Under the pieces are notes generated by a model that saw only the letters and a program-made list of their open reading frames with translations, was not told the DNA's origin and ran no database searches. The translations under genes were made by a program, and so were the position numbers. 32,000 nucleotides of DNA from Bacteroidales bacterium (GTDB lineage: Bacteria; Bacteroidota; Bacteroidia; Bacteroidales; JBDKHP01), in assembly GCA_965230435.1 (NCBI GenBank), contig CBDDLB010000006.1:2591101-2623100 (forward strand). The letters are read 5' to 3'. The first letter of the stretch is position 1. Each line of letters begins with the position of its first letter. This document shows, in pieces, positions 4,921 to 5,183 of the stretch.

Positions 4921-5183
4921 CTATTTTCAGTATCAATAGCAAGCCTTTCAATAAATCTGCTAACGAAAACGGAGCGCAGATTTAGAAAGCACAGCAGTTC
5001 TGGAAATAGCCGTGACTGTAGCGGAAAGCCCACAGGCACGCGTGCCAGTGACACACGGTGCGGAGGCTATGGAGCGGGAGCGGAATAGACCGCCGCGCCG
5101 ATGTGGAACGGCACGGGGGGCGAGGACTTGTAGCGGAAGGCGCGGAGGTGTGTTCTTGGAAAAAGGTGGTGTTGTGCTCCTAA
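4921..5183 (+). repeat. R2 dispersed repeat, copy A (its first 20 nt are displaced to 3111-3130 by the MITE/IS insertion)
   Basis: 263 nt align without gaps to 10941-11203 with 6 mismatches. The conserved family core is 5007-5145. Confidence 0.9.

Follow-up and report, generated by a model that had tools for sequence, protein, structure and literature searches.

Flavo-1 (RF01705) is a motif of Bacteroidota that was described by Weinberg et al. in 2010 from 239 examples, with no function proposed (PMC2864571). Almost all of these examples came from Flavobacteria, with a few from other Bacteroidetes or Spirochaetes (PMC2864571). In a review tabulating small-RNA families, Flavo-1 is among the most abundant (PMC9029176), and 128 Flavo-1 predictions are located in the genome of Flavobacterium psychrophilum (PMC9723704). 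The literature that we searched assigns no function to Flavo-1 since the 2010 description. In this study, we analyzed a 32,000-nt stretch of a Bacteroidales genome (assembly GCA_965230435.1, contig CBDDLB010000006.1, positions 2,591,101 to 2,623,100), hereafter called the window, which contains five copies (A to E) of a structured intergenic repeat, R2. The five repeats are members of Flavo-1; i.e., the window carries a sub-threshold long-hairpin variant of a known family and not a new regulator of signaling genes.

The five copies and their assignment to Flavo-1

The copies and their parts are as follows, where R1 is a covariance model built solely from copies in other genomes and searched against the window with the filters off.

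Copy A, full element: 4981..5184, plus strand; the outer helix pairs UUUAGAAAGCAC (4981-4992) with GUGCUCCUAA (5174-5183).
Copy A, parts: 5' box 5014-5031, long hairpin (hp1) 5032-5121 and 3' box 5122-5144, plus strand; Rfam Flavo-1 alignment 5004-5151, 25.1 bits.
Extra upstream module, in A and B only: 4921..4980, plus strand; 97% A/B identity across 4921-5186 and 10941-11206.
Copy B with intact upstream module: 10931..11204, plus strand; element proper 11001-11204, 5' box 11034-11051, 3' box 11142-11164; R1 42.6 bits (E 9e-9), Flavo-1 25.8 bits.
Copy C, full element: 29073..29275, minus strand; 3' box 29111-29133, 5' box 29224-29241, apical loop UUCG; R1 39.0 bits, Flavo-1 28.8 bits.
Copy D, the most diverged of the long copies: 23440..23640 (outer bounds approximate), minus strand; model match 23466-23604, 3' box 23473-23495; R1 49.1 bits (E 2e-10), Flavo-1 32.9 bits.
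Copy E, short variant: 868..1000 (outer bounds approximate), minus strand; core 890-960, 3' box 905-927; R1 36.7 bits, Flavo-1 28.7 bits.

The first-pass annotation, which was made from the window sequence alone, had reported five dispersed copies, and this number is borne out by repeat finding, by the count of the box pattern and by model R1. In repeat finding, A and B match in direct orientation, C (29111-29282) is inverted relative to them with 78-80% identity, and D (23466-23608) and E (905-965) are inverted relatives; a common core is alignable across all five. The 3' box pattern GAGGACTTGNAGNGNAANGNGCG occurs 5 times in the window versus 0.02 expected by chance, and R1 detects exactly the five copies (E 2e-10 to 3e-7) and no sixth, the next match having E = 1.3. 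The observation of folded, multi-copy intergenic repeats in the window is confirmed. Copy A as a full element is larger than the extent originally given (5007-5145) and is bounded by the outer helix at 4981-5184. In the module upstream of A, the right half of a terminator-like hairpin, which is split by an insertion sequence (IS), is followed by a second hairpin, AAAUCUGC...GCAGAUUU; the upstream hairpin is intact before copy B (10931-10968).

The same annotation matched the repeat to no named RNA family, which was wrong, as the best Rfam match of all five copies is Flavo-1. A search of the window at the Rfam gathering thresholds gave no match. In E-value mode, Flavo-1 was the top family for 5/5 copies, each aligned over the full model positions 1-76, and the scores listed above do not reach the Flavo-1 gathering cut-off of 42 bits. 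Copies A-D carry a terminal hairpin of 80-95 nt at the place where the Flavo-1 model expects 23 nt, and this insertion plausibly explains much of their score shortfall. Short-hairpin relatives of the 5' UAGCC subtype, to which the window copies belong, exceed the cut-off at two loci (46.7 bits at L096 and 42.2 bits at L041), and the window copies are thereby linked to accepted Flavo-1 members.

The double box with the helix/3x3-loop pattern <<<-<<---<<---<<<< ... >>>>--->>--->>->>> is present in both the Rfam and the R1 alignments, and the Rfam consensus ccGAUuGaAGcGGAAauCC...GauUguAgCGgAaAGCggGA corresponds to the two conserved boxes of the first-pass annotation. The alignment of Weinberg et al. 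includes GCGUUAGGGAU.../GCGUGAGGGAUU... copies that resemble those collected here (PMC2864571). The window shares with Flavo-1 the double box and helix pattern, the variable-length terminal stem, the phylum and the multi-copy intergenic habit: five copies lie within 32 kb of a Bacteroidota host, and the FecCD permease of the window (23696-24700) has named homologues from Bacteroidota metagenome-assembled genomes (MAGs) with 61-64% identity. The window copies differ from the model in that their long terminal hairpin bears its own covarying sub-domain and in that they have an extra outer helix; A and B have two further hairpins upstream.

Folding and covariation of the window copies

The 7-bp helix described earlier within the long hairpin is present in copies A/B, in which UGCGGAG (5059-5065) pairs with CGCCGCG (5091-5097) with one U-G pair and one A-G mismatch; its variants in C (UGUGGCG/CGCCACG) and D (UCUGGCA/UGCCAGA) are also found in the sequence. 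The apical tetraloop is swapped as reported, from GC-GGGA-GC in A/B (5074-5081) to GC-UUCG-GC in C, and the apical loop of copy D is GC-GCA-GC. In the four long copies, 94.9% of the cells are paired. The compensatory changes stand up to controls, with 15 two-sided pair changes versus 5.2 +/- 1.8 in shuffles (0/500 reach 15) and 1-4 in slid controls, a comparison that covers only three independent lineages, because A is nearly identical to B, and that uses a structure derived from those same sequences.

The choice of strand was also sound: the given strand is more stable than its complement in 5/5 copies, by 8-15 kcal/mol for the core and by 12-23 kcal/mol for the extended element. The z-scores against own shuffles are -4.4 for the given strand and -3.6 for the complement, and G-richness explains part of this difference. 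The two boxes constitute the conserved core, as had been proposed; copy E, in which hp1 is cut to 13 nt and the long covarying hairpin domain is absent, retains both, which shows that hp1 is dispensable. The extended region of copy E folds no better than its shuffles (z = +0.7), and its outer helix (GCAAAGCA/UGUUUUGC) was noticed by eye only.

Census and architecture of the family

One genome per species was searched with the 3' box pattern, which yielded at least 92 stretches. The full element is present in at least 87 (85 from Bacteroidota and 2 from Spirochaetota among the matches listed), and the taxa among the matches listed are Flavobacteriales, Chitinophagales, Cytophagales, Sphingobacteriales, other Bacteroidia and the two Spirochaetota; 5 of the 92 stretches listed lack the 5' box and resemble chance matches. 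Approximately 18 further copies lie in 657 kb of flanks. A metagenome scan for the window subtype returned five stretches, one of which is a true element. At 16 loci a gathering-level Flavo-1 match is absent, and typical Flavobacteriales copies score below the cut-off, e.g., 30-33 bits for the L060 copies, with L003, L006, L017, L029 and others behaving similarly. The curated Rfam model under-detects the family and misses whole sub-lineages, including the long-hairpin variants of the window.

A fuller picture of Flavo-1 emerges from the collected copies, in which the pseudo-two-fold double box is joined by an outer helix, a second hairpin and a tail. On the 5' side, the element consists of the outer helix strand P0 (GCGUG/CACGC), AGC, the 5' box GAUUGNAGCGGAAAGCCC, ACAG and a variable hp1 of 8-90 nt; on the 3' side, the 3' box GAGGACUUGNAGCGGAAAGCGCG is followed by AC, a variable second hairpin (hp2, which some lineages lack), the return strand of P0 and a CCAAA tail. 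Most lineages across the family have P0, hp2 and this tail, none of which belongs to the Rfam consensus structure; the outer helix of the window copies is equivalent to P0. The box consensus sequences are GAYUGNAGCGGAAAGCCC and GAGGACUUGNAGCGGAARGCGCG. The two boxes repeat directly and pair with each other antiparallel, which gives the helix pseudo-two-fold symmetry. The double box is a rod in which short Watson-Crick steps (GCG/CGC, UU/AA, GC/GC, AAG/CUU and CC/GG) alternate with two copies of one 3x3 purine loop (GNA opposite GGA), placed on either side of the GC/GC center.

Pairing is well preserved across 39 copies, in which 97.2% of the cells pair and 29 two-sided changes are observed versus 6.5 in shuffles (0/500 reach 29). 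P0 occurs as GCGUG/CACGC, GCGUU/AACGC, GCCUU/AAGGC and GCGCC/GGCGC, with pair 13-112 being GC in 24 copies and UA in 13; the central inter-box pair also covaries (GC in 34 copies, AU in 3). The boxes are near-invariant across orders, whereas the hairpins conserve pairing and not sequence. At one orthologous site, which follows a fadB-like gene, for example, hp1 differs among related genomes: it is GCACGG/CCGUGC, GCGCGG/CCGCGC or GCCCUG/CAGGGC. Each genome's copies share their own hp1/hp2 variants. Over unique hp1 families, wobble pairs favor the Rfam strand by 23 versus 8, and 5/5 long-hairpin families are more stable on that strand. In one Flavobacteriales MAG (contigs REDE01; loci L052, L078 and L037), a motif resembling the 3' tail, ACACGCCAAAAA/ACGCGTCCAAAA, lies ~15-20 nt upstream of the element; this motif may reflect a target preference, may be a remnant or may belong to the subfamily itself.

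Gene context and orientation

Each of the five window copies lies between genes and points in the direction of the gene that follows it, as the first-pass annotation stated; the co-orientation does not extend to the family. The genes after the copies are a TIR gene at 5311 (A), an open reading frame (ORF) at 11280 that encodes 161 aa with no Pfam match (B), a response regulator with a GerE/LuxR domain at 28333-29022 (C), a PAS kinase at 22001-23293 (D) and an HPt-domain gene starting near 584 (E). The ORFs that overlap copies (4960-5319, 5012-5266 and 28408-29289) are unsupported as genes. In order along the window, the copies lie on the -, +, +, - and - strands.

Context statistics were collected for 106 copies outside the window on the basis of simple ORF calls, with possible errors. 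The downstream gene is co-oriented in 32 and opposed in 53-57; between co-directional genes, 13 copies are sense and 28 antisense. This result is robust to stricter ORF lengths and weaker in low-GC loci. Copies in both orientations relative to genes, which the first-pass annotation had considered incompatible with its own view, therefore occur family-wide. The commonest placement is just 3' of a stop codon with the CCAAA tail towards the 3' end of the gene (median 61 nt, many <25 nt), and some copies lie ~9 nt or less from a start codon on the opposite strand. The proposed link to signaling genes was not seen elsewhere: the neighbors are diverse housekeeping and accessory genes, including fadB-like, aldehyde dehydrogenase, carboxyl transferase, aminotransferase, PEP carboxylase, pheT and defense genes. 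In summary, Flavo-1 copies show a modest positional bias to gene ends, and pairs of them repeatedly bracket variable defense genes.

The transcriptome of F. psychrophilum is similarly mixed, with sense, antisense and untranscribed Flavo-1 copies (PMC9723704). At an example locus the element's own strand is silent and the opposite strand expressed, and in the table of structured 5' regions 4/11 Flavo-1 mentions are "in the opposite strand" (PMC9723704). Because orientations are mixed both in the family and in F. psychrophilum, the 5/5 co-orientation in the window is a local and not a family property. It may be a local or lineage peculiarity, and a lineage-specific role may accompany it.

Such a role was the view of the first-pass annotation, in which the long-hairpin variant would have been co-opted in this lineage as a sense-strand leader in the 5' untranslated region (UTR), controlling the downstream gene, e.g., via protein binding or alternative folding. 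The co-orientation of 5/5 copies agrees with this, as does their spacing, with A-D ending ~50-147 nt before the start codon (from the outer-helix end) and E ~285 nt before it, and the 8-23 kcal/mol by which the sense strand is more stable than the complement. Furthermore, L041, the sole genome-scan locus of the UAGCC subtype among the matches listed, is sense to both of its neighbors, and some 5' UTRs of F. psychrophilum have Flavo-1 on the transcribed strand (PMC9723704). We nevertheless consider a leader function unlikely. Only four of the copies are independent, and the genes downstream of the five are unrelated to one another (a TIR defense-like gene, the 161-aa ORF, a response regulator, a kinase and an HPt-domain protein). 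After the element, neither a conserved expression platform nor a conserved terminator was found, and the covarying hairpin domain is wholly missing from copy E. The consistent co-orientation with related genes that characterizes leaders and riboswitches is not observed in the family, whose neighbors are diverse and whose orientation is mixed and leans the opposite way.

A second possibility is that each copy is an independent small-RNA gene acting in trans, e.g., by pairing with transcripts that bear the element in the opposite orientation, since copies in both orientations would give rise to complementary RNAs. Rfam assigns Flavo-1 to the type "Gene; sRNA", wobble pairs favor the sense strand, and at two F. 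psychrophilum loci the microarray signal of the Flavo-1 strand rises from ~4-6 to 6.5-10.9 in a few conditions (PMC9723704). On the other hand, the flanks diverge right at the outer helix and contain no conserved promoter or terminator, >100 copies per genome are unusual for such genes, in F. psychrophilum many of the copies are not in transcribed regions (PMC9723704), and several of the collected copies lie ~9-25 nt from the start or stop codons of neighboring ORFs. We regard this possibility as quite unlikely.

Three further candidates were rejected. A cyanobacterial repeat or riboswitch-like leader disagrees with the genome scan, which points to Bacteroidota, and with the mixed context statistics. 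An intrinsic terminator disagrees with the flanks, in which a U-tract, the structure and an A-tract follow one another on both strands, i.e., in the wrong order for termination; a terminator scan at the copies found nothing. An orientation tied to replication, with folding on the lagging strand, disagrees with the neighboring copies, which are mostly inverted (20 versus 5).

Defense genes between copies and the recombination-site alternative

Copies A and B bracket 5311-10890, which encodes a 1129-aa protein with three TIR domains and an FGE-sulfatase domain (PADLOC matches to ThsB/SAVED-TIR) and a 695-aa Sel1/WG-repeat protein; this interval looks like an accessory, defense-like insert. At L029, a 197-nt duplication (780-976 and 1743-1937; 91% identity) that contains Flavo-1 brackets a DUF433/DUF5615 toxin-antitoxin-like pair (970-1582, minus strand), and in other genomes copy pairs also bracket AbiE. 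In related Flavobacteriales MAGs, an inverted element pair bounds a slot with a conserved "gene X" on one side and the fadB-like gene on the other (L060 537-2836, L046 4128-6435, L081 425-3721, L005 308-2519, L047 3281-4073 and L011 5055-5933). The slot contains a Schlafen/AlbA_2-HATPase gene, a HerA-like ATPase gene or just a short unrelated sequence. The KilA-N/PDC-S22 gene of L046 (3151-4005) is located in the adjacent inter-element interval. These arrangements suggest that the elements occupy insertion hot spots or contribute to their formation.

In attC cassettes, the recombination site lies just after the stop codon with the folding strand antisense to the gene, and the site itself is a folded single strand with two protein-sized helical boxes, an unpaired center and a variable terminal structure. 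Flavo-1 resembles this layout: two short helices surround a mostly unpaired symmetric center followed by a variable terminal structure, and its copies most often follow directly after an ORF to which the folding strand is antisense (53-57 versus 32). Flavo-1 could accordingly be imagined as a folded single-strand recombination or boundary site at which accessory cassettes, in particular defense cassettes, are captured or exchanged. The bracketing of the TIR gene in the A-B interval and of toxin-antitoxin pairs and Schlafen-like, HerA-like and PDC-S22 genes elsewhere would suit such a site, as would the slot at the fadB-like gene, which varies in cargo or has no comparable gene.

Several differences from attC make this decidedly unlikely. 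The element sequences contain no R''/R' cores or other R/L core consensus, the copies are single and dispersed with no cassette arrays, no integrase (intI) was found among the neighboring ORFs scanned against Pfam, and the orientation bias is only ~60:40. The cargo-bracketing duplications exceed the element (197 nt at L029 and 276 nt for A/B), and because they extend past it, homologous recombination or segmental duplication fits better than a site-specific crossover. Paired copies usually differ in hp2 subtype, and many pairs bracket housekeeping genes. A composite transposon with Flavo-1 ends was rejected on the same difference in hp2 subtype and on the lack of target duplications around pairs or single copies. 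There is a small chance that the Flavo-1 family hides a recombination or boundary system. In its most far-reaching form, to which we give equally little credence, Flavo-1 copies would be folded-strand sites for a conserved dimeric enzyme that mark gene boundaries and serve as portable anchors for inserted or swapped accessory, often anti-phage, genes, i.e., the counterpart of attC and REP in Bacteroidota; the A-B pair around the triple-TIR gene would then be one such event.

Flavo-1 as a high-copy structured repeat

We favor, with modest confidence, the reading of R2 as a lineage-specific long-hairpin variant of Flavo-1 and of Flavo-1 as a high-copy structured intergenic repeat with a lifestyle similar to that of repetitive extragenic palindromic (REP) sequences and bacterial interspersed mosaic elements (BIMEs), and not as a gene-specific cis-regulator. 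That the repeat is dispersed by multiplication within genomes is indicated by ~100+ copies per genome, by the hp1/hp2 variants shared within each genome and by the near-identity of A and B. A simple decaying selfish element is disfavored because the boxes are near-invariant across orders and the hairpins retain pairing via compensatory change; on the favored reading, selection would maintain the Flavo-1 fold. The double box would be where a conserved factor docks; in the simplest case this factor would be a homodimeric protein that recognizes the Rfam-sense strand in its folded state, be it RNA or single-stranded DNA. The hairpins would need only to keep the boxes in register. The element would multiply inside genomes through copying or gene conversion. 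Where co-transcribed, it would be a generic stable structure in untranslated regions and no switch for particular genes, and the five sense copies of the window would be carried in leaders or read-through transcripts.

As in REP, BIME and REPIN systems, Flavo-1 copies are high-copy, extragenic, G+C-rich and hairpin-forming, are often found at gene ends, are co-transcribed in either direction and form genome-specific subfamilies. REPs are 20-40-nt imperfect palindromes, whereas Flavo-1 consists of two phylum-wide direct repeats in a multi-helix unit of 100-200 nt. REP systems are mobilized by REP-associated tyrosine transposases (RAYTs), whose genes are flanked by inverted copies of the short palindrome; the Flavo-1 unit is longer and has direct-repeat boxes, and no RAYT-like gene was found near its copies. 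Correia, ERIC, RUP and BOX elements are likewise short, non-coding, dispersed and structured when transcribed, and can alter the expression or stability of neighboring mRNA. Flavo-1 differs from them in that neither the terminal inverted repeats of a transposase-bearing parent nor target duplications were seen, and in its much deeper conservation. In the literature searched, nothing relevant was found on the box sequence or on REP-like repeats in Flavobacteria.

Several observations weigh against the high-copy repeat reading. Copying is inferred only from shared variants, because neither insertion events nor empty sites nor target duplications were observed. REP sequences are species-specific whereas the Flavo-1 boxes are conserved phylum-wide, which makes the REP analogy loose. 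At family frequencies, 5/5 sense copies in the window have a probability of ~0.003-0.03, and only four of the copies are independent. By minimum free energy, no strand preference is found over the 106 copies (52/106 favor sense, p = 0.6), the strand favored by wobble pairs is more often antisense to the neighboring genes, and it is the silent strand in the documented F. psychrophilum cases (PMC9723704). Simple RNA and simple passive models both fail to fit this pattern; the element may fold as single-stranded DNA, may be transcribed antisense at a low or conditional level, or may function in both orientations. The gene calls at the loci are simple ORF calls, in which errors may occur.

The IS110-like element next to copy A

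A mobile element lies directly beside copy A in the window.

IS110-family-like insertion sequence: 3131..4920 (1.79 kb), plus strand; Pfam DEDD_Tnp_IS110 and Transposase_20 on frameshifted ORFs (3358-4242 and 4184-4738).

The IS has 21-bp imperfect terminal inverted repeats and is flanked by an 8-bp direct duplication, CTATTTTC, at 3123-3130 and 4921-4928. To our knowledge, IS110-type elements do not usually combine inverted ends with a duplication. The IS is inserted into the hairpin loop before copy A, and the uninterrupted target is seen at copy B. Because the IS interrupts this upstream hairpin, the 276-nt composite unit of A is older than the IS. A derivative of ~170 bp that consists of only the left and right IS ends is located at 29303-29472, directly upstream of copy C in the orientation of the element, and a partial inverted copy lies ~400 bp beyond, at 29808-29883. 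For two R2 copies, the IS or its remnant lies no more than ~60-75 nt from the 5' side.

This proximity raises the question of whether R2 represents a miniature transposon or one terminus of a known transposon, e.g., that of the IS110-like element, which abuts copy A and whose short derivative abuts copy C. R2 is multi-copy, intergenic and hairpin-forming, as a miniature transposon would be. The IS ends (GATAGTACTATACATGTAATG and its inverted partner) are, however, unrelated to R2, so that for the adjacent element the transposon end that the first-pass annotation had allowed for is not the case, and the IS was inserted in the upstream hairpin of A with an 8-bp duplication of its own. No IS sequence lies near B, D or E. 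The R2 boxes are direct and not inverted repeats, no target duplication was found flanking single copies or pairs, and no transposase recurs near the 106 copies (269 ORFs within 1.5 kb of copies, flanks only). The transposon reading is largely refuted, and we consider it very unlikely indeed. A phage-borne element was also rejected, with one match in 2.9 million viral contigs. The high copy number, extragenic location and genome-specific subfamilies of REP-type sequences are all found in Flavo-1.

A tandem array with a 41-nt unit occupies 2639-3089 (2695-3040 in Tandem Repeats Finder, with 8.4 copies and 95% matches). Its unit consists of a 9-bp hairpin, CTTCCTGCAAGTTGCAGGAGG, followed by CCATTGTTTG on the minus strand; the array overlaps unsupported ORFs and stops just before the hairpin that is the target of the IS.

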